64,000 nucleotides of DNA. It comes from an uncultured bacterium (GTDB lineage: Bacteria > Auribacterota > JAFGBW01). Both the position numbers and the translations under genes were made by a program. The stretch spans positions 12,778 through 76,777 of the forward strand of contig CAYUET010000012.1 in the NCBI GenBank assembly GCA_964443875.1, read 5' to 3'. Positions 170 through 35,921 of the stretch are shown piece by piece. Within the stretch, counting starts at the first letter, position 1, and each line of letters starts with the position of its first letter. The notes under the pieces were generated by a model, which saw only the letters and a list, made by a program, of their open reading frames with translations, made no database searches and was not told where the DNA came from.

Positions 170-424
170 ATGACAGACGAAAAAAATCAGAATAACGAAA
201 GTCCATCCTGTGGCTGTAAGGAGAGTTCAAACGGAGGAAAGTGGGTTTTGATTATAGTGGCGATGCTTGCTGTTGCCATGGTTTTTCAGAAGCCTCCATG
301 CAAATGCAGCTCAATAAATGTATTAAGCCAGAAATCAGCTGCCGCTTTGACGGATAAAAAGACATCTTCTAAGGATCAGACAAGTAAAGCTTGTAAAATA
401 GGGGTGTGTTCCCCTAAAAATTAA
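170..424 (+). CDS. small Cys-rich single-pass membrane protein, hypothetical
   Basis: 84-aa ORF with one hydrophobic helix (WVLIIVAMLAVAMVF) and CGC / CKC / CKIGVC cysteine clusters. An RBS-like aaggaag precedes the ATG. It sits inside the redox cluster. Confidence 0.35.
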   Translation: MTDEKNQNNESPSCGCKESSNGGKWVLIIVAMLAVAMVFQKPPCKCSSINVLSQKSAAALTDKKTSSKDQTSKACKIGVCSPKN

Positions 425-435
425 TTTAAATTTCA

Positions 436-828
436 ATGAAGGAAAAATTTATGAATGACAAACCAACATGTGCTTGCGGAACCGCTCCAAAACTTATATT
501 TCCCTGCTCCGGTGGATCGGATACAGGTGAATTAACAGATCAAACCGCACGAAAATTGACCAGAGACGGGCTGGGTAAAATGTATTGCCTGGCAGGAATT
601 GGCGGACGCGTTTCCGGAATTATGGCAAGCACTGAGAGTGCTGCTAAAATTCTGGCAATTGACGGATGTCCTCAGAACTGCGCCAAAAAAACTTTGGAAG
701 AAGCAGGATTTAAAAAGTTTGAACACCTGACATTATCAGAAATAGGTTTTCAAAAAGGCAGCTCACCTGTTAATGCGGATAATATTTCAATCGTGGCTGA
801 AAAAGCATCGAAACTATTAACATGTTAA
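436..828 (+). CDS. DGC-domain putative zinc-binding protein
   Basis: Contains the AIDGCPQNCA motif and N-terminal Cys pairs (CACG...FPCSGG) characteristic of the DGC domain family. 130 aa. An alternative start is possible at 451. Confidence 0.55.
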   Translation: MKEKFMNDKPTCACGTAPKLIFPCSGGSDTGELTDQTARKLTRDGLGKMYCLAGIGGRVSGIMASTESAAKILAIDGCPQNCAKKTLEEAGFKKFEHLTLSEIGFQKGSSPVNADNISIVAEKASKLLTC

Positions 829-849
829 AATCGAAAGGATCACGATAAT

Positions 850-1248
850 ATGAAAAGTATTAAAATTTTAGTCATGGCACTTGTAATAATGTTTTCTTCA
901 GCATTTTCAATAACAGCAGAGGAATCGAGAAATGCAGGAATTCCCAGGCTTGTGGATCTCGGTGCAGAGAAATGCATCCCGTGTAAAATGATGGCTCCGA
1001 TTCTGGATGAATTAAAGGCGAATTATGTCGGCGTTCTGGATGTTCAGTTCATTGATGTCTGGCACCAGGAGAATGCAGAACAGGCAGAAAAGTATGGAAT
1101 TCGGAGCATTCCAACACAAATTTTTATTTCTCCAGAGGGAAAAGAATTGTTCAGGCATGAAGGTTTTTTTGCAAAGGAAGATATCTTGGCAAAATGGAAA
1201 GAACTGGGGTTTGATCTGAATGCAAAGGCCTCAAATAATTTAAAATAA
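850..1248 (+). CDS. thioredoxin-family protein, secreted (CxxC = CIPC)
   Basis: N-terminal signal peptide, then GAEKCIPCKMMAPILDEL, a thioredoxin active-site context. Size (132 aa) fits the thioredoxin fold. Confidence 0.65.
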   Translation: MKSIKILVMALVIMFSSAFSITAEESRNAGIPRLVDLGAEKCIPCKMMAPILDELKANYVGVLDVQFIDVWHQENAEQAEKYGIRSIPTQIFISPEGKELFRHEGFFAKEDILAKWKELGFDLNAKASNNLK

Positions 1249-1249
1249 A

Positions 1250-1732
1250 ATGAATAAAATTCAAATCATTGTTAAAAATATTTTACTGGTCTTTGTTTTT
1301 ATAACCCTAGGATTCAGTCTGGGGAAGGAAGTTACTTTAAGAACCGTTAAACCGGCAGCTCAGGATATTGAACCCGGCACGGGAAATAAAGTCATTGTTT
1401 ATTACCTGCACGCAACGTTTCGCTGTGTCACCTGCAACACGATAGAAAAAATGACGAAAGAATTGCTCGACTCAAAGTTTGAAGAGCAATTAAAAACAGG
1501 CCTGATAGAATGGAAACGGGCGAATTTTCAAAAAGATGAAGCTCTTGCAAAAAAATACCAGGTGATTTCAAGTTGTGTGGTTGTCGTGCAAATCAGGGAG
1601 GGAAAAGAAACCGCCTATAAAAGGCTGGATGAGGTCTGGACACTTCTTGAAGATAAACACTCTTTTAACAAGTATTTGGGTGATGCGGTTATGGAATTGT
1701 TGAATACAAAAGAAAACGGAGGTCACTCATGA
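1250..1732 (+). CDS. secreted CxxC (CVTC) thioredoxin-fold-like protein, hypothetical
   Basis: Signal/TM at the N-terminus. VIVYYLHATFRCVTCNTIE resembles a beta-strand plus CxxC active site. Translationally coupled to ccdA (ATGA overlap at 1729). Confidence 0.35.
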   Translation: MNKIQIIVKNILLVFVFITLGFSLGKEVTLRTVKPAAQDIEPGTGNKVIVYYLHATFRCVTCNTIEKMTKELLDSKFEEQLKTGLIEWKRANFQKDEALAKKYQVISSCVVVVQIREGKETAYKRLDEVWTLLEDKHSFNKYLGDAVMELLNTKENGGHS

Positions 1733-2409
1733 CCTGGTTGATGATAGGAACCGTGTTCTGGCTTGGACTTCTGACGGCTATAAGTCCCTGTCCTCTTGCT
1801 ACAAATATTGCAGCCATTTCATTTATAGGGCGTCAGGTTGGAAACAGATACAGCGTACTTTTATCAGGTTTTTTTTATACAGTGGGTCGTACCTTGACTT
1901 ATGTTTTACTTGGGATTCTTCTTGTCTCAGGGCTTACTGCTGCCGGTGATTTATCCCGGGTTCTTCAAAAATATCTGAATGAGATTCTAGGGCCTGTGCT
2001 GATTCTTTTAGGAATGGTAATGCTCGGATGGATAGACAGTTTTCTTTACCTTAATCTTGCTGGAACAAAAGTTCAGGAAAAAGCCTCAAAAGGGGGTATT
2101 ATCTGGCCTGTTATGCTTGGATTTCTGTTTGCCCTGTCGTTTTGCCCGGTATCTGCGGGTCTTTTTTTCGGTGGGTTGATTCCGCTTTCCATCAAGGCGG
2201 ACTCTGCCGTATTGTTATCCCTTGTTTACGGAATAGGCACGGCATTACCAGTTATCGGCTTTGCCTTTATCATTGCCTTTGCAACTGAGTATGTAGGCAA
2301 AGTTTTTGACAGTTTGACAATCTTTGAAAAATGGGTTCGTATTATCGCAGGGATCCTGTTTATTCTTGTGGGTATTTATTACTGCCTGACCCATGTCTAT
2401 GGAATTTGA
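1729..2409 (+). CDS. ccdA: cytochrome c-type biogenesis / thiol-disulfide transporter CcdA (DsbD transmembrane-domain family)
   Basis: Polytopic membrane protein with an SPCPL motif in TM1 (ISPCPLATNIAA) and a second Cys (SFCPV), which is the hallmark of the CcdA/DsbD-beta family. 226 aa. Confidence 0.7.
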   Translation: MTWLMIGTVFWLGLLTAISPCPLATNIAAISFIGRQVGNRYSVLLSGFFYTVGRTLTYVLLGILLVSGLTAAGDLSRVLQKYLNEILGPVLILLGMVMLGWIDSFLYLNLAGTKVQEKASKGGIIWPVMLGFLFALSFCPVSAGLFFGGLIPLSIKADSAVLLSLVYGIGTALPVIGFAFIIAFATEYVGKVFDSLTIFEKWVRIIAGILFILVGIYYCLTHVYGI

Positions 2410-4345: not shown

Positions 4346-4822
4346 TTATTGTTTTTTGATCATGGATTCGGTATAGAAATTTATTATTGAATTTCTATGG
4401 GTTAAATTTCTCACTACGAGATAAGTAACGGCGGAAACAACCTCATAGCGACTTGAGGGAGCCATGTTGATGCCGGGGAGTATTTGAAAAAAATCATCAA
4501 TTTTTAAAGTTAAAAAAGCATCAATAACACGGGCCTCCTGTCCTGTTCCACCGCCTGAATTTCCTAGCTCCGTACAGATATAGCCACTAAGCCGTTCATT
4601 AAAAGTTGCATTTAATATAATTCGGCCTCTTCTTACTTTAAAGTCGTCGTAGGAGTCGTATTGCCCGTCAGAATCAAGATCCTTTTCTGAAAGAATGTCG
4701 AAGGTCTGAACCCGTAATCCAACATCCATGGTTCCGGCTTCGCCCATATCAATTTTGGCTCCCGCAGAAGCTAAAGAGGAAATTATTAAAAGACATAGAA
4801 AAACAATAGAAAATTTCTTCAT
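4346..4822 (-). CDS. hypothetical secreted protein
   Basis: Signal peptide MKKFSIVFLCLLIISSLASA. No recognisable domain. An RBS (ggagagg) precedes it. Confidence 0.4.
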   Translation of the reverse strand: MKKFSIVFLCLLIISSLASAGAKIDMGEAGTMDVGLRVQTFDILSEKDLDSDGQYDSYDDFKVRRGRIILNATFNERLSGYICTELGNSGGGTGQEARVIDAFLTLKIDDFFQILPGINMAPSSRYEVVSAVTYLVVRNLTHRNSIINFYTESMIKKQ

Positions 4823-5027: not shown

Positions 5028-6590
5028 ATGAATTATTCATTTACAAAAAGGAGGGGAATGATGAGTGATGATAATCAAACGGAGCGTCCTCTGAAAAAAG
5101 GGACCTTGCCGTCTCAGACCATTCATGTCAGTTTTCATTCATTTATGACCGTGATTCTGATGGCGCTTTGCCTTCCCTGCTGGTTCTGGTTTTACTGGCG
5201 CATAGAACCCAAAGCCGGTGAAATTGCGGTTTTGGTCCGGAAAACAGGAACTCCTCTTGCTTCCGGAAAAATCATTGCGACAGAGAAAAAAGAAAAAGGC
5301 ATTCATCTGGATGTTCTGCCTGAAGGCCGGTATTTTTACAATCCCTACACCTGGACATGGAAGTATTTTCATATCACCGATATCCCTGCCGGAAAATTCG
5401 GGGTCAAGATCCGGCTTTACGGGAACGATCTTTTACCTGGAAAAATTATCGCCGGAGAAAATGAGAAGGGAATCCTTGAAGAAGTGCTGATGCCCGGCCG
5501 TTACCGCATCAATCCTTATGCCTATGAAATCCGGATTTTTGAAGCCATTTCCATTCCTTCCGGCCAGGTGGGGGTCGTTACCCGGCTTACGGGAAAAGAT
5601 ATGCTGAACATTCCTCCCCCTGAAAAACTGAATGCTTTTATTGCAGCCGAGGAAGATAAAGGGGTTCAGGCTTCTGTTCTTGAACCCGGAACGTATTATC
5701 TGAATCCTTATCTGTATATGGTTACTCCGGTGAATCTGAAAAGTCAGCGTTTTGAAATGAGCGGTGAAGGCTCTATTGTTTTTCTTTCCCTGGATGGTTT
5801 TGATATTTCTGTGGAAGGGACGATCGAATGGGCCGTCAGACAGGAAGCGGCTCCTTTGATCACCACGGAAGTCGGGGATCTGGATGATGTGCTGAATAAA
5901 ATCATACTGCCGACTGCCCGCGGATTCAGCCGTCTGGAAGGTTCCAAGAAACCGGCTATTGATTACATCATGGGGGATACCCGCCAGCAGTTTCAGGACA
6001 AGCTTTCAGAACATTTAAAAAGCGTCTGCATTGAACGCGGTATTGAAATCCGTTCTGTTCTGATCCGGAATATCATGCCTCCCCAGGAAATCGCGAGCAT
6101 CATCCGTGAGCGGCAGATTGCCGTGCAGGACAGACGCAAATATGAACAGCAGATCGCAGAGGCCAAATCCCGTGCGGAACTTGCAAAGCAGGAGGAGCTG
6201 GCTGTCCAGAACAGGGAAAAAACAGAGCAGGAAACAGTGAAAATCCGCGCGGTCATTAATGCGCAGCAGTTTCAATCCGTGGCTTTGACCGAAGCCAACC
6301 GGAATCTGGAAGTGGCAAAACTTCATAATGAAGCCGCTGATTTTCAGGCCAGGGCGATTATCGCAAAAGGAGAGGCGGAACGGGATGTGATCCAGTATAA
6401 AAGAGAGGCGGAGTCCAATGCGCTGTCTGAAAAAGCGAAGGCTTTTTCAACGGGAATGAATTTCACCCAGTATACTTTTTATAAAAAGATCGCCTGCCGG
6501 GTTAAAAATATTTTTACCGATGACAAAGGCGCTTTCGGAAATATTTTCGATTCGCTTTCTGCAGGGAAGCAGAAAGGAGGTGCCCAATGA
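5028..6590 (+). CDS. SPFH/Band-7 (flotillin-like) membrane protein with three iterated N-terminal SPFH-like modules
   Basis: N-terminal TM helix, then 3x ~50-aa repeats of the form G(K/Q)xGV(V/K)..L.GxD...GKIIA..EKGI...VL.PGRY..NPY. The SPFH core follows (IRSVLIRNIMPPQEIASIIRERQIAVQDRR), then a coiled-coil EA-rich flotillin-like tail. The true start is probably the ATG at 5058 (MMSDD), after the AGGAGG at 5044. Confidence 0.7.
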   Translation: MNYSFTKRRGMMSDDNQTERPLKKGTLPSQTIHVSFHSFMTVILMALCLPCWFWFYWRIEPKAGEIAVLVRKTGTPLASGKIIATEKKEKGIHLDVLPEGRYFYNPYTWTWKYFHITDIPAGKFGVKIRLYGNDLLPGKIIAGENEKGILEEVLMPGRYRINPYAYEIRIFEAISIPSGQVGVVTRLTGKDMLNIPPPEKLNAFIAAEEDKGVQASVLEPGTYYLNPYLYMVTPVNLKSQRFEMSGEGSIVFLSLDGFDISVEGTIEWAVRQEAAPLITTEVGDLDDVLNKIILPTARGFSRLEGSKKPAIDYIMGDTRQQFQDKLSEHLKSVCIERGIEIRSVLIRNIMPPQEIASIIRERQIAVQDRRKYEQQIAEAKSRAELAKQEELAVQNREKTEQETVKIRAVINAQQFQSVALTEANRNLEVAKLHNEAADFQARAIIAKGEAERDVIQYKREAESNALSEKAKAFSTGMNFTQYTFYKKIACRVKNIFTDDKGAFGNIFDSLSAGKQKGGAQ

Positions 6591-8398
6591 AAAATCCGTT
6601 TTCCATTTTGAGCAGAGAGAAATCCGGTTTTTCAAATGTCCGTACTATTTCAGCGGTAGTCCTGTTCATTCTTGGCCTTTATGGAGTATGGCTCTGGGTT
6701 TTCTGCCGTTTTTATGTTCCGCCGAATTACATGGCCGTAATCATTTCCAAAACCGGGAAAATACTTCCGGATGGACAGATTCTGGCTGAAAAAGGGGAAA
6801 AGGGAATCTGGAAAGAGGTTTTGGGTGAAGGCCGTTATTTTTTAAATCCGATTATCTATGAATGGGTACTGAAACCTGTTATTGAGATTGATATCGGAAA
6901 AATCGGGGTTGTCACTTCCAAAATCGGAAAGGATCTTCCCAGGGGAGAGTTCCTGGCTGAAAAAGGTGAGAAGGGAATTCAGAAAAACATCCTTGGGCCA
7001 GGGAAATACAGGCTGAATCCCTACGGGTTTGAAGTAACGGTTCAGGATGCCCTTGAAATTCCCATCGGATATGTCGGGGTGGTGACCTCCCTGGCCGGGA
7101 AAGAGGCCAAAGAAGGGGATTTTGCGGTGATCGGTGAAAAAGGCGTGTTAAAGGATGTGCTGCAGCCCGGCCTTTATTATATCAACCCAAGGCAGTATCA
7201 GGTCAATATTGTCGAAGTGGGAACGAATCAGATTTCCCTTCTGGGCTATGATTCCTTTAACCAGAGCCAGGGAAGAAATCAGGAAGTGATCCGAACTAAA
7301 AAGACGGATGCTCTTGCCAAACAGATGGTGGTTCAATCCGAACTCCTGGAACAGAAGCTCGAAAAAACCCAGGAAAGACAGAATATGTATAAACAATCTT
7401 TAATGAATCAGGCTCCTGCCCAGAGAGACTCGCGTATGGATTCAGGGGTTCGATTTGGAAAAAGCCGTGAAAGAGCAAGCCTATCTAAACAGATGGGGAT
7501 GCCCTCTGTCCAGAGTGATTCACGGGTGGATGCGGGGCTTCAGAGTGTTTTGCAGTTCATAGAATTTCCCTCCAAGGACGGTTTTGATATTCAGCTGGAT
7601 ATGACCGTGGAATTTGAATTTCTTCCCGAGAAAAGTGCCTTTATTTTCAAGGAATACGGGGACCTTTTTCAGGTGGTTGAAAAAATTATTCTTCCCCAGA
7701 TCCTTTCCATTTCAAGGCTTAAAGGGTCTGCTTACGGGGCAAGAGATTTTATTGTCGGTGACGGGCGCGAAAAATTCCAGGATGAACTGGTCTCAAAGCT
7801 CAAGGAAACACTGGGAGCCAAGGGGATCGGAATCCGTTCCTCTCTTATCCGTCATGTGATTGTGCCTGACGATATCCGCACGCCCATACAGGATGCCTCG
7901 ATCGCCATAGAAACCAATCTGACCAATATTGAAAAGCAGGAAACGGCCAAAAAACTGGCAGAACTCAATACTGAACTCAGCCTCATTGACCAGAGACGTG
8001 AACAGGTTCAGCAGGAAACACAGAAAATCAAAGCCGAGATTCAGGCCAGTGAATTGAAAGAAGTCGCGGAAATTGAAGCCGCGACTGTAAAACGGACGGC
8101 GGAGATTGAAAATAAGACCGCACTGATTCATGCTGAAAAGGTGAGGAAGATCGGTAAAGCCGAAAGTAATGTGATCCAGATGACAGGCCTTGCAGAAGCT
8201 AATGGTTTTAAACTGAAAGTCTCTGCTCTCGGTGATCCTTCGGCCTATTCGCTCTATGAATTCAGCAATCATCTGCCGAATGATCTGAACCTTGTTATTG
8301 CTCACACCGGCCAGGGAACTCTTTGGACGGATTTGAACAAATCTCTTTCCGGAAACCTGAGCAGTCTGAAACTGCTGGAAACAGCGGATAGAAAATAA
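6587..8398 (+). CDS. SPFH/Band-7 (flotillin-like) membrane protein, paralog of the upstream gene
   Basis: Same architecture as the upstream gene: TM; repeats GQILAEKGEKGIWKEVLGEGRYFLNPIIYEW / GEFLAEKGEKGIQKNILGPGKYRLNPYGFE / GDFAVIGEKGVLKDVLQPGLYYINPRQYQV; SPFH core (IRSSLIRHVIVPDDIRTPIQDA); long coiled coil. The start overlaps the upstream stop (ATGA). Confidence 0.7.
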   Translation: MKNPFSILSREKSGFSNVRTISAVVLFILGLYGVWLWVFCRFYVPPNYMAVIISKTGKILPDGQILAEKGEKGIWKEVLGEGRYFLNPIIYEWVLKPVIEIDIGKIGVVTSKIGKDLPRGEFLAEKGEKGIQKNILGPGKYRLNPYGFEVTVQDALEIPIGYVGVVTSLAGKEAKEGDFAVIGEKGVLKDVLQPGLYYINPRQYQVNIVEVGTNQISLLGYDSFNQSQGRNQEVIRTKKTDALAKQMVVQSELLEQKLEKTQERQNMYKQSLMNQAPAQRDSRMDSGVRFGKSRERASLSKQMGMPSVQSDSRVDAGLQSVLQFIEFPSKDGFDIQLDMTVEFEFLPEKSAFIFKEYGDLFQVVEKIILPQILSISRLKGSAYGARDFIVGDGREKFQDELVSKLKETLGAKGIGIRSSLIRHVIVPDDIRTPIQDASIAIETNLTNIEKQETAKKLAELNTELSLIDQRREQVQQETQKIKAEIQASELKEVAEIEAATVKRTAEIENKTALIHAEKVRKIGKAESNVIQMTGLAEANGFKLKVSALGDPSAYSLYEFSNHLPNDLNLVIAHTGQGTLWTDLNKSLSGNLSSLKLLETADRK

Positions 8399-8411
8399 GA
8401 TTATATGATTT

Positions 8412-8439
8412 CTCCCTGTTTTGATAAGGAAACAGGGAG
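8412..8439. terminator. 10-bp-stem hairpin (CTCCCTGTTT-N8-AAACAGGGAG) between the convergent SPFH-2 and dnaE genes; candidate bidirectional terminator
   Basis: Perfect inverted repeat in the sequence. A weak T-tract (gattttta) follows on the + strand. Confidence 0.35.
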
Positions 8440-8559
8440 TGATGCCTGATTTTTATGAGCAAGGCGAAGTGAAAATTTAAATCAGAATTATTCCCAGGGG
8501 AGTATTGACTCAGAGGAGCTTGCTTTAGAACCCAGGGTAAATGCCCTGGATTTAATCCG

Positions 8560-31812: not shown

Positions 31813-33567
31813 ATGTATGTAATTATTGTCAAAAATCAGTCCGGTTCTGAAGTTGTGAGATATGCAACAGGTTCATTAAGGGAAGCGGTTTCACTGGGAA
31901 AAAGTCCGGAGAATCCCATTGTCGTGAATGATCCTTCCATTTCTGAAAAACATTGCGCCTTTGAATTTGATGGAAAAAAAATTTCCATCCGGAATTTAAA
32001 AAGCCGCAATGGGATCATTTTAAACGGGGAAAGAATAAAAACGGAAAAAGCGGAGGTTACAGAAACAGATGAAGTCCGCATTGGAGATTTTTTGATTTCC
32101 TTTCTGTGGGAAGGAAGCTCGGAGGATCTTCTCCCGTCAAAGAAGAAAAGCCGGGAGACACTGTTCACCTGGATTCTCTCTTTTCTTCTTTTGACTTTTT
32201 TAGGATGGAACATCCGTCCTCTGCCTGAAAAGGAAATTTTTATTCCCCCTCTTGCCCCTCTTGAAGCGAAAAAATCCGATTCTGAAACTCCCGGAAAGAG
32301 CACCTGGCAAATCCTTCTTTCCAAAGCCAAGGATGCCTATTTTAACGATTCAATCCTTGAGGCGGCAAAGCTTTTTAAACAGGTGCTTGAGCAGCAGCCG
32401 CAGAATATGGGGGCGATGAATTTTCTTGAACAGATCCGGAAGGAAATGATTCCCAAATTGGAAGAAACCATTAAAACCACTATTGCAGAACGGAATATTG
32501 TGACTTGTGCAGCAACAGTGGAGGAACTGAAAATTCTTGATCCCGGCAATATCTGGATTGAAAAAGCCCAGGGGCTTCTGGAGGGATATAAGAAATTTGA
32601 TGAGGTCCGGAAGCTTTATGAATCGCATCATTTCAGAGAGGCTCAGAAAAAGATTCAAAATATAGTGCTGGTGGATGAAGAAACGCTGGAGGAATGGGTC
32701 GGCAAAGTCAATCATGAGGTTAAGGTCACAGAAAATTTTCGAGGAATCCTTACCCGTTACCGTTCAGGTCCTATTTCACAATCTTATAAAGAGCTTAAGC
32801 CATTCCTGGAAACTGAAACCGAACAGAAAGATCTTCTTTCACTGGCACGCCAGAAACTCCAGCTTGTGAAACGTTTCGCCGGGTTTAAAGAGCTGCAGAA
32901 ACAGGATCCCCTTAAACAGACTTCTTTCGGGGTTGCGCTGCTCTATGATCTTTCTGAAAAAGAAGATCCCTTCATTTATCATCAGGTCAATCAAAGACTT
33001 GAAGAGCTGACAAAACAATGCGGTCCTGGAACAGAATTCTATATTCTTCTCAATGAAGATACCGCCACTCAGCTGGATCAGGCCAGGGATTATAAAAAAA
33101 TTCATGAATACAAACAGTCTCTCAGCAATTACCGGAGTGCCCTGAATGGACTCAGAATTCTTTCTTTTTTTTCAAAAGATTCGAAATTCATAAAACAGGA
33201 AGGGGAGGTTTATCAGGAAATTCTCAGTTATCAGGCTTCCCTTAAGAAAAGAGTTGAAGAGCTTCACCAGATCAATGAATCTGACTTTGCCCGACAGTTA
33301 TCAGATCTTCTTGCCCGTTTTAGGGTTTATCCCAATAAAACGGTACTGGCAGCGACAGAGGAATTATATCAGGGAGAGGGGGATGACAAGGCGCTGATCC
33401 GGGAGATTTTCAGTACTGATGCCGGGACTTCTTTTCAGGCTGCTCCGGTGAACAAAGCAGAAAAAAAGACAGCCGAGGCTAATAACTCCACGAACGTTAA
33501 CAGAGCCACCCCCGACCTTTCTGTTTCTGCCGGAAATTTTTTCATTTCCCGGCCGGAAGAGACATGA
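31813..33567 (+). CDS. membrane-anchored FHA-domain protein with TPR-like periplasmic region
   Basis: N-terminal FHA domain (SLGKSPENPIVVNDPSISEKHCAFEFDGKKISIRNLKSRNGIILNGERI). A single TM helix (WILSFLLLTFLGW) and a long helical C-terminal region follow. Confidence 0.7.
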   Translation: MYVIIVKNQSGSEVVRYATGSLREAVSLGKSPENPIVVNDPSISEKHCAFEFDGKKISIRNLKSRNGIILNGERIKTEKAEVTETDEVRIGDFLISFLWEGSSEDLLPSKKKSRETLFTWILSFLLLTFLGWNIRPLPEKEIFIPPLAPLEAKKSDSETPGKSTWQILLSKAKDAYFNDSILEAAKLFKQVLEQQPQNMGAMNFLEQIRKEMIPKLEETIKTTIAERNIVTCAATVEELKILDPGNIWIEKAQGLLEGYKKFDEVRKLYESHHFREAQKKIQNIVLVDEETLEEWVGKVNHEVKVTENFRGILTRYRSGPISQSYKELKPFLETETEQKDLLSLARQKLQLVKRFAGFKELQKQDPLKQTSFGVALLYDLSEKEDPFIYHQVNQRLEELTKQCGPGTEFYILLNEDTATQLDQARDYKKIHEYKQSLSNYRSALNGLRILSFFSKDSKFIKQEGEVYQEILSYQASLKKRVEELHQINESDFARQLSDLLARFRVYPNKTVLAATEELYQGEGDDKALIREIFSTDAGTSFQAAPVNKAEKKTAEANNSTNVNRATPDLSVSAGNFFISRPEET

Positions 33568-35921
33568 GCTATCTGATTTCTGTTTTTTATTTTTTTATGC
33601 TGAGTTTGATTTCTTTTCAGGTTTTTGCGCTGGATACCCTTTTAGGGGATGAAGAGGAAGGCTTTTATCTCAACTGGCCTGAAAAGGAATGGGCCTTTGA
33701 AGCGGAAGAAAGAAAAGAAACCCGACAGACCATTTCACTCCTGAAAATTCAGCAGGAACCTTTTCCGGAAAGAGCCATTTTAACTGCAGAGCCTCGGCCT
33801 GAAGAGGGTTTTTCTGCTTTTTTTGATTTTTATCTGGAAAACGAAAAGAAACAAATTCCAGGAGCTGAAATTGAAATTCTGCCTCAAAGCATCAAAGGGG
33901 AATATGATAACCGGCTTTTTGTTCTTTATGACAGAAAACAGGAAGGCCATTCTTCTGCCTCGGTTATTCTTCTGATTCAGGGACAGCGTTTTTTATATGG
34001 TGTAAGAAGGAAAACGAATTCTTACTCCTCAGGCTTTATTAAAGATTCTGCCGCTTTTCTATTAAAAGGATGTATTCTTGATTCCAAACAGTTATTGCAA
34101 ATCAGAAAACAAAGAGCAGAGGTTGAAGAGGAAAAGATAAAAGAGATAAAAAGCGCGGAGAAGAAGGCCTTTGAATCGGATACAGAAGAGCTGCTTTCTC
34201 TTGTCCGGGATGAGGGAATTGAGGAAAAAGAAGAGCCGGTGGAGTTAACTGTTTATAAATTTAAAAAACAGAAAAAAGAAAAAAACGGGAAAAGTCTTTT
34301 AGAACAAAAAGCGGAAGACTTCTTCCCTCAGAAAGCGCTGAATGAAGAACGGACCCCTGTTGGGGAAACAGCCATCACTTCAGAAACAGAAAAATTATCC
34401 ATTATTTGGGAAGCTGCAGAAGACTGGACAATTTTTTCTGCTCCGGTTCAGAAAATGGAAAAAATGGGAGAAGGTGAGTCCGTAACAACAAAAAGCATCA
34501 AGGTTTATCATTCCCGGGAGAATGAGGATGACTGGACGGAAACCGGAGAAATGAAAATGTCAGGAGGTCCTTTGAAGGAGGGGGAATCTGCAGATAAATT
34601 TCTTGAAGAGTATATTCATAAGATTTTTCAGGATGAATTGAAAAATGACCTGCAGGCCTCTCTTGAGATCACGGAAGATCGGCTTGCGGAATCCGATGCT
34701 TCACGGATTTTTATCATTAGGGCGACAAAGGAAAAAGTGCCGAATATTCAGTTTTACCTGATTCTTTTCGGGAATAAGGGTTTTTATGAAATCAACAGGA
34801 AAAAACGTGGGGAAGAGGTTTTCTTCGTTTCCAGGAAAAAGTTCATTCATTTTTTAAAAAAAGCAAAACTCACTGATTCAGGATTGACGGGGAGGGATGC
34901 TCAAAAATCCGAGAATGAGGATATGGATGAAAACACAGAGGATTCGGAAAAATCAGACCAGGATGACACGGACTCCGGAGATGGGAAAGAGGGGAAGGAG
35001 GATTGGGATTCCAGCACAGACACGGATACTCTTACAGATATCATTACCGATACAGATACAGAGACCGGAACAGGAATAGAGACAGGGACAAAGACAGATA
35101 CCGATACAATAACAGATACGGAAACACTTACGGATACGGACACCCGGACAGGAACGGGAACCGGAAGCGGGACAGGAACGAAGAGGGATACGGATACAAA
35201 GACAGACACGGATACCCTTACGGATATCATAACCGATACAAATACAGAGACCGGAACAGGAATAGAGACAAGGACAAAGACAGATACGGAAACACTTACG
35301 GATACGGACACCCGGACAGGAACGGGAACCGGAAGCGGGACAGGAACGAAGAGGGATACGGATACAAAGACAGACACGGATACCCTTACGGATATCATAA
35401 CCGATACAAATACAGAGACCGGAACAGGAACGGGCACTTCTATTCATACTCAGACCAGAACAAATACAAAAACCGGAACGAGTACTTCAACATCGACAAA
35501 AATCATAACCAAAACCTCTACGGCTACAGAGACTGCAACGAATACTGGAACTAAAACTTCCACCAACACGCATACCCGTGTGGATACATCGACCAAGACC
35601 TCAACAGGCACGAGTACGGATATTACTGAAGAGGAATCAAATGCCATGGAGCAGCAGGAGCAGCAGGAGGAGGCTGATAAAACCAACAAAATGTTTGACG
35701 ATCAGAGGAGAACTCTGATTAAAAAGCATCTGGATAATATTTTGGAAACAAAAGAAGCTTATGAAGCTAAAAGCGGAAATAATGCAGCCTCTTCCCATCG
35801 GAATTATCGTATAAATGCAGAGGAACAGGATTGGGGACAGGCAAGGATCACAATCAATGATATTGAAAAACGCCGGAAGGAATTTAACGACTTAATGAAT
35901 AAGTCAGAGGAAGAGGAGTGA
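33564..35921 (+). CDS. secreted protein with ~200-aa Thr-Asp/Thr-Gly dipeptide tandem-repeat tract
   Basis: Signal peptide. N-terminal ~440-aa domain, then (TD/TG/TE/TK)n tract with 56-60-aa higher-order repeats, then a short acidic/coiled C-terminus. Coupled to the upstream FHA gene (ATGA overlap). Confidence 0.55.
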   Translation: MSYLISVFYFFMLSLISFQVFALDTLLGDEEEGFYLNWPEKEWAFEAEERKETRQTISLLKIQQEPFPERAILTAEPRPEEGFSAFFDFYLENEKKQIPGAEIEILPQSIKGEYDNRLFVLYDRKQEGHSSASVILLIQGQRFLYGVRRKTNSYSSGFIKDSAAFLLKGCILDSKQLLQIRKQRAEVEEEKIKEIKSAEKKAFESDTEELLSLVRDEGIEEKEEPVELTVYKFKKQKKEKNGKSLLEQKAEDFFPQKALNEERTPVGETAITSETEKLSIIWEAAEDWTIFSAPVQKMEKMGEGESVTTKSIKVYHSRENEDDWTETGEMKMSGGPLKEGESADKFLEEYIHKIFQDELKNDLQASLEITEDRLAESDASRIFIIRATKEKVPNIQFYLILFGNKGFYEINRKKRGEEVFFVSRKKFIHFLKKAKLTDSGLTGRDAQKSENEDMDENTEDSEKSDQDDTDSGDGKEGKEDWDSSTDTDTLTDIITDTDTETGTGIETGTKTDTDTITDTETLTDTDTRTGTGTGSGTGTKRDTDTKTDTDTLTDIITDTNTETGTGIETRTKTDTETLTDTDTRTGTGTGSGTGTKRDTDTKTDTDTLTDIITDTNTETGTGTGTSIHTQTRTNTKTGTSTSTSTKIITKTSTATETATNTGTKTSTNTHTRVDTSTKTSTGTSTDITEEESNAMEQQEQQEEADKTNKMFDDQRRTLIKKHLDNILETKEAYEAKSGNNAASSHRNYRINAEEQDWGQARITINDIEKRRKEFNDLMNKSEEEE
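35020..35420. repeat. near-perfect tandem duplication (~168-180 nt unit, ~2.3 copies) inside the TD-repeat gene
   Basis: The unit cttacggatatcataaccgatacaaatacagagaccggaacaggaatagagaca...gacacggatacc recurs at ~35027, ~35217 and ~35385 with only a few substitutions. Confidence 0.8.

Follow-up and report, generated by a model that had tools for sequence, protein, structure and literature searches.

Introduction

The SPFH cages, such as HflK/C, prohibitin, erlin, flotillin and stomatin, and the vault have been recognised only recently as one architectural family, and the solved paired SPFH paralogs all form alternating rings (PMC12624060). The HflK/HflC pair of E. coli (7vhq, 7wi3, 9cz2) consists of adjacent paralogs encoded without NfeD, in which an N-terminal TM helix is followed by one SPFH1 module, SPFH2 and the CC1/CC2 helices; flotillins (FloT/YuaG, FloA, YqiK) combine an SPFH domain with an A/E-rich coiled coil; and SPFH11a and SPFH11b are adjacent paralogs of one operon, also without NfeD (PMC2636767). 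Iterated SPFH1 modules are the hallmark of the eukaryotic major vault protein (MVP), whose repeats are equated with SPFH1 modules (PMC11348225; PMC13607799). A prokaryotic origin of MVP is under active discussion (PMC12962969, PMC13607799, PMC3762200), and the origin of the vault repeat barrel has so far been argued from archaeal data, with the archaeal 'MVP homologues' being described either as reciprocal best structural matches of MVP or as ordinary one-repeat SPFH proteins (PMC12962969; PMC13607799). Bacterial MVP homologues exist as well, among them Corallococcus H8MNI3 and Herpetosiphon A9AUD4. A bacterial, TM-anchored, paired family with three repeats is not described in PMC12962969 or PMC13607799. 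Here, two genes of such a family, termed A and B, are described from a window of 64,000 nucleotides (the whole stretch of DNA analysed) of an uncultured bacterium of the Auribacterota.

Results

Gene Pair and Domain Architecture

The proteins encoded by A and B share 30% identity over ~535 columns (E 1.5e-60), and B is 100% identical to P0121. Translation of A probably begins at ATG 5058, which yields a product of 510 aa, since a Shine-Dalgarno (SD) sequence, GGAGGGG, lies upstream at 5050–5056 and P0001, the nearest homologue of A, is 510 aa long. Both open reading frames were recovered on the forward strand, confirming the overlap of the two genes that had been reported in the preliminary description; the start of B and the stop of A share the four bases ATGA, the SD of B is strong and located inside A, and the two genes are probably translationally coupled (Table 1). 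The 10-bp hairpin between B and the convergent dnaE is a possible terminator, as read in the sequence, and the terminator scan reported none downstream of B, this hairpin being absent from its output.

Band_7 (PF01145, clan CL0433) was the only Pfam family reached by A or B at E up to 1, and both proteins exceed its gathering score of 23.6 bits, with 92.9 bits (E 3.2e-26) over residues 175–381 of A and 55.5 bits (E 9.8e-15) over two stretches of B, one of them covering residues 306–455. The order of TM helix, three repeats, SPFH core and long helical region that had been proposed beforehand was borne out by the AF2 model, hydropathy and the Band_7 matches. The TM helix of A displays a median hydropathy peak of 2.46 among the orthologues (n = 83), and repeat 1 follows directly behind it. 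Differential conservation was observed along B, where the top-residue frequency among 70 orthologues is 0.73–0.79 in the repeats, 0.83 in the SPFH2 core and 0.72 in the coiled coil; the insert within the SPFH domain, found in 70/70 B orthologues with a length of 62–109 aa, reaches 0.32 against 0.73–0.83 in its flanks. Judging from the 30% identity, B would adopt a fold like that of A.

Table 1. Positions of the features of the A/B cassette in the window.
Feature	Position	Strand	Details and basis
Gene A, SPFH paralog	5028..6590	+	520 aa from ATG 5028; ORF list
A TM helix, N-terminal	5115..5195	+	residues 30-56; AF2 helix, hydropathy peak
A repeat 1, extra SPFH1/MVP-repeat-like beta module	5202..5378	+	residues 59-117; repeat statistics, AF2
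A repeat 2, extra SPFH1/MVP-repeat-like beta module	5379..5552	+	residues 118-175; repeat statistics, AF2, Foldseek
A repeat 3, native SPFH1 of Band_7	5553..5735	+	residues 176-236; Band_7 match
A SPFH2 core, alpha/beta	5736..6083	+	residues 237-352; Pfam Band_7, AF2, Foldseek
A long helices, CC1/CC2-like coiled coil	6084..6443	+	residues 353-410 and 419-472; AF2 model
A/B junction	6574..6590	+	SD AAGGAGGTG at 6574-6582 within 3' end of A; ATGA at 6587-6590
Gene B, SPFH paralog	6587..8398	+	603 aa; ORF list, Band_7, similarity to A
B TM helix, N-terminal	6647..6706	+	residues ~21-40; sequence inspection, hydropathy
B repeats 1-3	6713..7219	+	residues 43-99, 100-156, 157-211; repeat statistics; repeat 3 is native SPFH1
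B-specific insert within SPFH domain	7262..7546	+	residues 226-320; A/Q/S/K/R-rich, poorly conserved
B SPFH2 core and coiled coil	7547..8191	+	residues 321-455 and ~456-535; Pfam Band_7, alignment to A
Inverted repeat CTCCCTGTTT...AAACAGGGAG	8413..8440	.	between convergent B and dnaE; read in sequence

Tandem SPFH1-Type Repeats

Each of the two proteins carries three beta repeats of ~57 aa, the length and sequence of which are kept in 57 A homologues and 70 B homologues. In pairwise Smith-Waterman comparisons against 500 shuffles, 15/15 repeat pairs scored 52–131 against shuffle maxima of 36–51 (z = 7.2–22), with the B repeats reaching z = 14–22 among themselves. The Pfam check of the repeats proposed in the preliminary description was run, and repeat 3 of both proteins scores as an N-terminal fragment of Band_7, matching profile positions 3–48 in A (repeat 3 alone, E 0.0013) and 5–45 in B (E 7e-4); together with the one-repeat-long Foldseek matches to SPFH chains given below, these matches support the earlier suggestion that the repeat copies the N-terminal beta module of Band_7. 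Since the Band_7 match in A begins at residue 175, repeat 3 constitutes the domain's native SPFH1, and the three extra SPFH heads proposed earlier are retained as repeats and reduced in number to two extra modules plus the native one.

Two conserved tryptophan residues were observed in repeat 1 of A and are absent from repeats 2 and 3 (mean 2.03 versus 0.00 among 58 sequences), as expected of a module at the membrane interface. Repeat 1 of A corresponds to repeat 1 of B and repeat 2 of A to repeat 2 of B, indicating that the triplication is older than the A/B duplication. The repeat copy number in relatives varies from 2 to about 15, such as nine in P0254, and the arrays invariably begin directly after the TM helix, which is what a module setting wall height would allow. 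The relatives with many repeats are single genes with a C-terminal VWA domain and weak summed CshA_repeat matches.

Predicted Structure and Comparison with Known Families

The AF2 model of A exhibits a pLDDT of 81 overall and >90 in repeats and core, and the repeat-only model, in which the repeats are all-beta, a pLDDT of 89.6 and a pTM of 0.80. The full-length model contains an SPFH1 module, an SPFH2 core and long helices as in the solved SPFH cage subunits, with a tandem array of three MVP-repeat/SPFH1 modules ahead of the SPFH2 core and helices. In the full-length Foldseek search, HflK/C, erlin, prohibitin and MVP were matched about equally (E 3e-11 to 1e-8), the best match being HflK/C 7vhq (E 3e-11) and MVP aligning over ~550 columns. 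The SPFH2 core matched the cores of stomatin, prohibitin and HflK/C, and the long helices align with helical regions of HflK/C, erlin and MVP. For the repeat region, the first 13 matches were all MVP repeat arrays (MVP R1–R7 and full MVP chains), with probabilities of 0.89–1.0, marginal E-values of 2.4e-3 to 0.15 (3gf5_B, E 2.4e-3, probability 1.0) and TM-scores of 0.43–0.49 over 181–194 columns, followed by prohibitin, HflK/C, erlin and stomatin chains over one repeat (64–79 columns).

The preliminary description had missed both the MVP likeness of the iterated SPFH1 modules and the range of 2 to ~15 copies.

True MVPs carry all five Pfam models Vault (PF01505), Vault_2-4 (PF17794-6) and MVP_shoulder (PF11978), none of which matched A or B at E up to 1 or nine relatives with many repeats (E up to 0.1). 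The repeat HMM found no MVP among all PDB sequences at E up to 10, its best match being a lipoyl domain at chance level (E 0.46); the family profile found neither MVP nor HflK/C in the PDB up to E = 1, its best match there being stomatin at E 0.003 only; and the nine-repeat P0254 gave no match in the PDB. The probability from hhalign, family against an 11-species MVP alignment, was <=7%, with an MVP profile that is shallow (Neff 1.7) because it holds only tetrapod MVPs. In these comparisons, no homology to MVP at the sequence level was found.

Identity with HflK/C by model (NCBIfam TIGR01933 and TIGR01932) was rejected, as hflK, the best NCBIfam match of A, reached 35.2 bits (E 8.9e-9), far under the cut-off of 159.4, and B had no match. 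The term flotillin-like, used in the preliminary description, was given up: neither Flot (PF15975) nor a flotillin model was matched in Pfam or NCBIfam, flotillin chains appeared in the fold search at E 3e-8 or weaker, below HflK/C, erlin, prohibitin, stomatin and MVP, and the A/E/Q-rich helices are the CC1/CC2 that all SPFH proteins share. Its statement that the sequence type is unrecognised agrees with the lack of any specific family model among Pfam and NCBIfam matches. The stomatin/NfeD operon type (p-stomatin, QmcA-YbbJ) was discarded, no NfeD gene adjoining the pair, and a role in defence was discarded on the lack of a PADLOC match.

Distribution and Locus Conservation

The A-B cassette was observed in PVC bacteria, Auribacterota, Desulfobacterota and some Gammaproteobacteria (Competibacter, Ectothiorhodospiraceae), with cultured hosts such as Desulfoferrobacter suflitae DRH4 and Pontiellaceae isolates. 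A precedes B in 80/86 loci, and the two genes most often join through the 4-nt overlap (46 related loci), which, with the strong SD of B in A, upholds the pairing proposed from the window; by analogy, a conserved coupled pair fits an HflK/C-like hetero-oligomer. All-against-all ORF clustering of the 86 loci returned nothing conserved beyond A and B other than antisense shadow ORFs, and no third conserved gene, the most frequent genuine neighbour being present in 11/86. Neither ftsH nor hflX is linked to the cassette in the 86 loci; NfeD is absent from the neighbourhood of the pair in the window, in line with the earlier reading, and from the 86 loci as a conserved third gene. Lysine and arginine are enriched ahead of the TM helix (2.71 versus 1.76; 51 versus 17 loci), a weak positive-inside signal that suggests an HflK/C-like orientation. 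The names in use for proteins of this kind are generic: over 1000 of their sequence clusters go by no more than 'SPFH domain-containing', 'HflC-like', 'VWA domain-containing' or 'hypothetical', and one relative carries the label 'YqiK' from a generic COG assignment.

Discussion

The reading favoured here, with moderate confidence, is that A and B form an HflK/C-like, alternating hetero-oligomeric membrane cage, the wall of which is heightened by extra SPFH1 modules. As in HflK/HflC, PHB1/2, erlin1/2 and flotillin1/2, the two proteins would alternate as subunits of one large ring or cage seated on the cytoplasmic membrane. Within each subunit, the TM helix would be separated from the SPFH2 core by three stacked SPFH1 modules, two extra and one native. 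Repeat 1 would sit next to the membrane, where ordinary SPFH proteins have their only SPFH1, and the CC1/CC2 helices would form the upper wall and roof; three modules per subunit would make the wall two modules taller than that of HflK/C, on the principle of the vault barrel with its nine such modules. An N-in orientation would place the bulk of both proteins in the periplasm, where the cage may act as a membrane-compartmentalising scaffold for a client.

That the cassette is simply the HflK/HflC of this lineage, a periplasmic cage around the FtsH protease that modulates it, with the extra modules as lineage-specific decoration, is considered unlikely. The paired, overlapping, TM-anchored genes without an NfeD partner, the positive-inside signal and the leading positions of hflK in NCBIfam and of 7vhq in Foldseek all agree with it, whereas a score of 35 bits where the hflK model requires 159, the absence of HflK/C from the PDB profile search up to E = 1 and linkage to ftsH or hflX in 0/86 loci argue against it. 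Canonical hflKC is usual in Gammaproteobacteria, and the presence of the family in this class indicates that the cassette is probably an additional system. A small oligomer with its repeats serving as rigid spacer or stalk, as in adhesin-like proteins or periplasm-spanning tethers, is rated as quite improbable: a copy number of 2–15 is variable as in the stalks of surface proteins, and the many-repeat relatives are single genes with VWA domains and weak CshA_repeat matches, yet A and B themselves show no CshA or adhesin match, they conserve a complete SPFH2 core and CC1/CC2, the drivers of ring formation in every solved SPFH complex, and MVP builds a closed barrel wall from the same module type.

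Common descent with MVP, in which the family would be a membrane-anchored 'half-vault' sharing the repeat amplification, is given equally little weight. The order of SPFH1/MVP-type repeats, shoulder or SPFH2 and long helix is the same, MVP aligns over the full length and heads the structural matches of the repeat array, relatives with 9–15 repeats exist and prokaryotic origins of MVP are debated (PMC12962969, PMC13607799, PMC3762200). Against this stand the missing Vault, Vault_2-4 and MVP_shoulder matches at E up to 1, all present in true MVPs, the failure of the repeat HMM and the family profile to find MVP in the PDB, the hhalign probability of <=7%, and a TM-anchored pair set beside a soluble homo-oligomer. 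Module copy number also varies within the bacterial clade, which points to easy amplification and makes convergence with MVP plausible. Only marginally less doubtful is the broader proposal that the family and its relatives with 2–15 repeats are membrane-anchored 'half-vault' barrels of module-set height and the bacterial source, or closest living analogue, of the vault barrel; if true, the vault would be a membrane-released SPFH cage.

Returning to the heightened HflK/C-like cage, the series of 2 to about 15 copies provides a natural means of relating module number to cage height and of asking whether amplification occurred once or repeatedly, and the existence of cultured hosts opens the assembly to experiment. 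Within the known SPFH superfamily, the paired variant with triplicated SPFH1 is a membrane-anchored bacterial family, widespread among uncultured bacteria, that resembles the HflK/C pair and yet carries a vault-type module array, under names that have so far been generic.

Comparison with Known Systems

Flotillins share the SPFH domain and A/E-rich coiled coil and have no repeat array, and A and B are without the Flot domain and the NfeD/YuaF-like partner. SPFH11a/b likewise are paired adjacent paralogs without NfeD, but no N-terminal repeats are described for them, and SPFH11b is reported to have no coiled coil (PMC2636767); in the SPFH1-12 nomenclature of Hinderhofer et al. 2009, SPFH11 or another small subfamily may yet equal the family of A and B. 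HflK/HflC agree with A and B in adjacency, domain order and the absence of NfeD, and A and B are likely to form an alternating hetero-oligomer by analogy with them; unlike HflK/C, which have one SPFH1 module, A and B have three, B carries an insert of 62–109 aa inside the SPFH domain, and the cassette is free of ftsH or hflX linkage. The Asgard and other archaeal MVP homologues are also prokaryotic and follow a repeat-shoulder-tail plan, but their repeat number is lower than that of MVP, namely one or, in a Lokiarchaeial protein, five; by their published descriptions, they differ from A and B in being archaeal. MVP itself (4v60, 9bw5, 3gf5) shares the tandem SPFH1-type modules, followed by a shoulder that is SPFH-like and then by a long helix; it is a soluble, homo-oligomeric, eukaryotic protein whose nine repeats form a closed, two-halved particle, whereas A and B are paired and TM-anchored with three repeats each.

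Gene Pair and Repeat Organization

Both ORFs of the tandem SPFH/Band_7 paralogs, here A and B, lie exactly where the preliminary description had placed them and share the ATGA overlap that it reported, with AAGGAGGTG forming a strong Shine-Dalgarno sequence for B within the end of A (see the table). The true start of A is probably the ATG at 5058 (residue M11) rather than that at 5028, since GGAGGGG is well spaced before it and the closest homologue of A, P0001 (95% identity), is 510 aa long. The two proteins are 30% identical across ~535 columns (E 1.5e-60). The convergent 3' ends of B and dnaE flank an inverted repeat of 10 bp (CTCCCTGTTT / AAACAGGGAG, loop of 8 nt), which the terminator scan did not report, as no T run follows it.

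Features of the gene pair and of other regions of the window
Feature	Window position	Strand	Residues or remarks
Thiol-redox-like cluster	170-2409		
158-aa ORF	4346-4822	-	directly upstream of A
Gene A	5028..6590	+	520 aa ORF
GGAGGGG	5050-5056		before the probable start of A
Repeats R1, R2, R3 of A			59-117, 118-175, 176-236; three adjoining ~57-aa units
Shine-Dalgarno sequence of B	6574-6582		
Gene B	6587..8398	+	603 aa ORF
Repeats R1, R2, R3 of B			43-99, 100-156, 157-211; three adjoining ~57-aa units
Insert of B	7262-7546		226-320; 95 aa
Inverted repeat	8413-8440		
FHA-domain protein gene	31813-33567		
785-aa ORF	33564-35921		
Tandem repeat in the 785-aa ORF	35016-35430		168-nt unit, 1.9 copies

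For all 15 repeat pairs, the local alignment score (52-131) was higher than in any of 500 shuffles (maximum 36-51; z = 7-22), and the strongest A-to-B matches were positional (A-R1 with B-R1, A-R2 with B-R2), indicating that the triplication is older than the A/B gene duplication. The Pfam Band_7 match in A spans residues 175-381 (profile positions 2-174) and thus begins with R3, which is therefore the native N-terminal part of the domain. By itself, R3 of A matched Band_7 positions 3-48 (E 1.3e-3) and R3 of B positions 5-45 (E 7e-4); R1+R2 of B gave a weak match to those positions (E 0.27), and R1+R2 of A none to Band_7. The preliminary description is largely right on the repeats, but the extra copies number two (R1 and R2) instead of the three originally counted. 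In family A, two conserved tryptophans are confined to R1 (mean W 2.03 vs 0.00 in R2 and R3), and the corresponding signal in family B is not clear.

The SPFH domain of B is split by an insert that was present in 70 of 70 orthologues examined (62-109 aa), is rich in A/Q/S/K/R and is poorly conserved, with a top-residue frequency of 0.32 vs 0.73-0.83 in the flanks. In most orthologues the insert opens with a semi-conserved VITKxQIxxQNxAMxxLQ... segment, ahead of a tail of low complexity rich in A/Q/S/K/R/P; this opening segment is absent in B of the window and its nearest relatives.

Predicted Structure and Family Assignment

The AlphaFold2 model of A, built from 58 sequences, reached a mean pLDDT of 81, with values >90 across the repeats and core, and bore out the proposed order of TM helix (30-56), three all-beta modules, alpha/beta core (240-350) and long helices (353-410 and 419-472). 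A Foldseek search of this model against the PDB placed the major vault protein (MVP) about level with the SPFH proteins that form cages: the E-values were 3e-11 for HflK/C (7vhq), 2e-10 to 2e-9 for MVP chains, ~1e-10 to 1e-8 for erlin, prohibitin and stomatin, and no better than 3e-8 for flotillin. Repeats, core and helix were jointly covered by the MVP alignments, which extended over ~550 columns. For a repeat-only model (residues 57-240; pLDDT 89.6, pTM 0.80), 13 of the 13 top PDB matches were MVP repeat arrays (TM 0.43-0.49, 181-194 columns), the best being murine MVP R1-R7 (3gf5_B, E 2.4e-3, probability 1.0), and these were followed by ~70-column, one-repeat matches to prohibitin, HflK/C, erlin, stomatin and flotillin chains. 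This vault parallel, like the variable copy number of the repeat, had no place in the preliminary description.

As for family assignment, Band_7/SPFH was the sole Pfam family in A and B, above its cut-off in both, and the sole NCBIfam match of A was hflK, far below threshold at 35 bits vs a cut-off of 159. No Flot, NfeD, Vault or MVP_shoulder model of Pfam or NCBIfam matched either protein, and PADLOC also gave no match. The original label of flotillin-like is therefore not upheld, given the missing Flot match and the lower rank of flotillin chains in Foldseek. Membership of the MVP family was likewise considered for A and B and rejected, because neither the repeat HMM nor the family profile found an MVP chain in the PDB, hhalign of the A/B family against an alignment of database MVPs (retrieved after a human MVP query had been checked against the PDB) gave a probability of at most 7%, and the family carries none of the five Pfam vault domains of true MVPs. 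With no sequence-level link to MVP found in these comparisons, the likeness of A and B to MVP is architectural, inside the SPFH superfamily.

Copy Number of the Repeat Among Relatives

A single-repeat HMM searched through 1.84 billion representative proteins detected 1400 proteins at E up to 1e-3, of which the best 150 carried 2 (n=14), 3 (n=93), 4 (n=13), 5 (n=9), 6 (n=9), 7 (n=5), 8 (n=3), 9 (n=1), 13 (n=2) or 14 (n=1) copies, and up to 15 at a looser threshold. The arrays begin directly after the N-terminal TM helix in nearly all relatives, and Band_7 follows in the cases scanned. Long arrays consist of a first unit of ~58 aa, n middle units of ~73 aa and SPFH-proximal units, with a mean identity between units of ~40% and a maximum of ~0.7. 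The proteins with 9-15 repeats, such as P0241, P0246, P0247 and P0299 (L087:7001-10996), are encoded by single genes, end in a VWA domain and are named only "VWA domain-containing protein"; those with a named source come from filamentous cyanobacteria, namely Symploca sp. SIO2E6 (NET58509.1) and Iningainema tapete (WP_190831120.1). The Iningainema gene adjoins relaxase, T4SS coupling-protein and GUN4-domain genes, a plasmid or conjugative element context. The Pfam surface adhesin repeat CshA_repeat scored up to 40.9 bits (cut-off 27) on the relatives P0254, P0247, P0299 and P0241 as a sum of weak matches with no single significant stretch, reflecting either similarity of the 73-aa unit or a repeat artefact; it was not seen in A or B of the window.

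Distribution and Gene Neighbourhood

Homologue searches returned >1600 relatives of A and >2300 of B, labelled in generic terms only, such as "hypothetical", "Band 7", "SPFH domain-containing" or "regulator of protease activity HflC". The scan of species-representative genomes yielded 342 loci, mostly in uncultured bacteria of Verrucomicrobiota, Kiritimatiellia, Lentisphaerota, Planctomycetota, Omnitrophota and Desulfobacterota, with those of Candidatus Auribacterota, which is thus the likely source of the window, closest to it (73% identity). Some Gammaproteobacteria were also found, such as Ectothiorhodospiraceae in the genome scan and Competibacter in the homologue search, and the few cultured hosts are Desulfoferrobacter suflitae DRH4 and the Pontiellaceae isolates B12227 and B1224. 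The preliminary description is also largely right on the pairing: the order A to B was found in 80 of 86 loci, with junctions overlapping by 4 nt (n=46) or 1 nt (n=5). No third conserved gene was found in the 86 loci, the best genuine neighbour occurring in 11. At one locus (L005:7085-7999, ENA contig_33164), the B orthologue is preceded by a gene called at only 304 aa instead of ~510, which may mean that A is truncated there or that an error of gene calling or assembly is involved.

The window neighbours of the pair are a DGC/thioredoxin/DsbD_2 cluster and genes for a ClC channel, dnaE, a ComM-like ATPase and an SNF2 helicase, with neither FtsH nor NfeD among them, the latter as noted before. 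The cluster, seemingly a thiol-redox module, combines a Cys-rich 84-aa ORF, a DGC-domain protein, a thioredoxin, an unassigned 160-aa protein and a DsbD_2-type membrane protein; in two related loci (L001 and L002) the cassette likewise has a thioredoxin gene beside it, a neighbour not kept more widely. The 158-aa ORF encodes a clear signal peptide at its N-terminus and matched no Pfam family, and its sequence resembles the first part of an outer-membrane protein of beta-barrel or porin type that stops prematurely. Elsewhere in the window, the 785-aa ORF, preceded by an FHA-domain protein gene, has no Pfam match and contains a 100% identical, purine-rich tandem repeat of ACA/GAT/ACG/GAA type, apparently Thr/Asp/Glu-rich, which explains why the AT skew stands out (0.305) at 34-36 kb.

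Proposed Assembly and Relation to the Vault

Assembly, orientation and client of A and B are matters that we infer. By analogy with every solved SPFH paralog pair (PMC12624060), the two proteins would most likely form a large ring of alternating subunits, held in the membrane by their TM helices. The three stacked SPFH1 (N-terminal beta) modules would raise the wall of this ring by two modules over that of HflK/C, and its upper part and the roof would be built by the long helices CC1 and CC2. R1, directly after the TM helix, would lie at the membrane interface, a position that the conserved tryptophan pair of A-R1 fits. The excess of K+R before the TM helix in family A (2.71 before vs 1.76 after; 51 vs 17 loci) modestly favours, by the positive-inside rule and for A only, an N-in orientation that places most of the protein in the periplasm.

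No description of a bacterial, TM-anchored SPFH family, paired in its clade and bearing tandem SPFH1/MVP-type modules, was found in the papers that we searched. Soluble MVP-like proteins are known from gliding bacteria (PMC3762200; bioRxiv 10.1101/872010), and five-repeat Asgard MVP homologues were reported in 2026 (PMC12962969). SPFH1 and MVP-repeat modules have already been equated in the literature: in ECOD, the ordinary archaeal SPFH N-terminal module is an MVP repeat, and MVP is on this view an elaboration with eight tandem repeats (PMC13607799). The reading as iterated SPFH heads is therefore correct; it is precisely the building plan of the vault. The natural series of 1 to 15 modules bears on the relation of SPFH cages to vault barrels.
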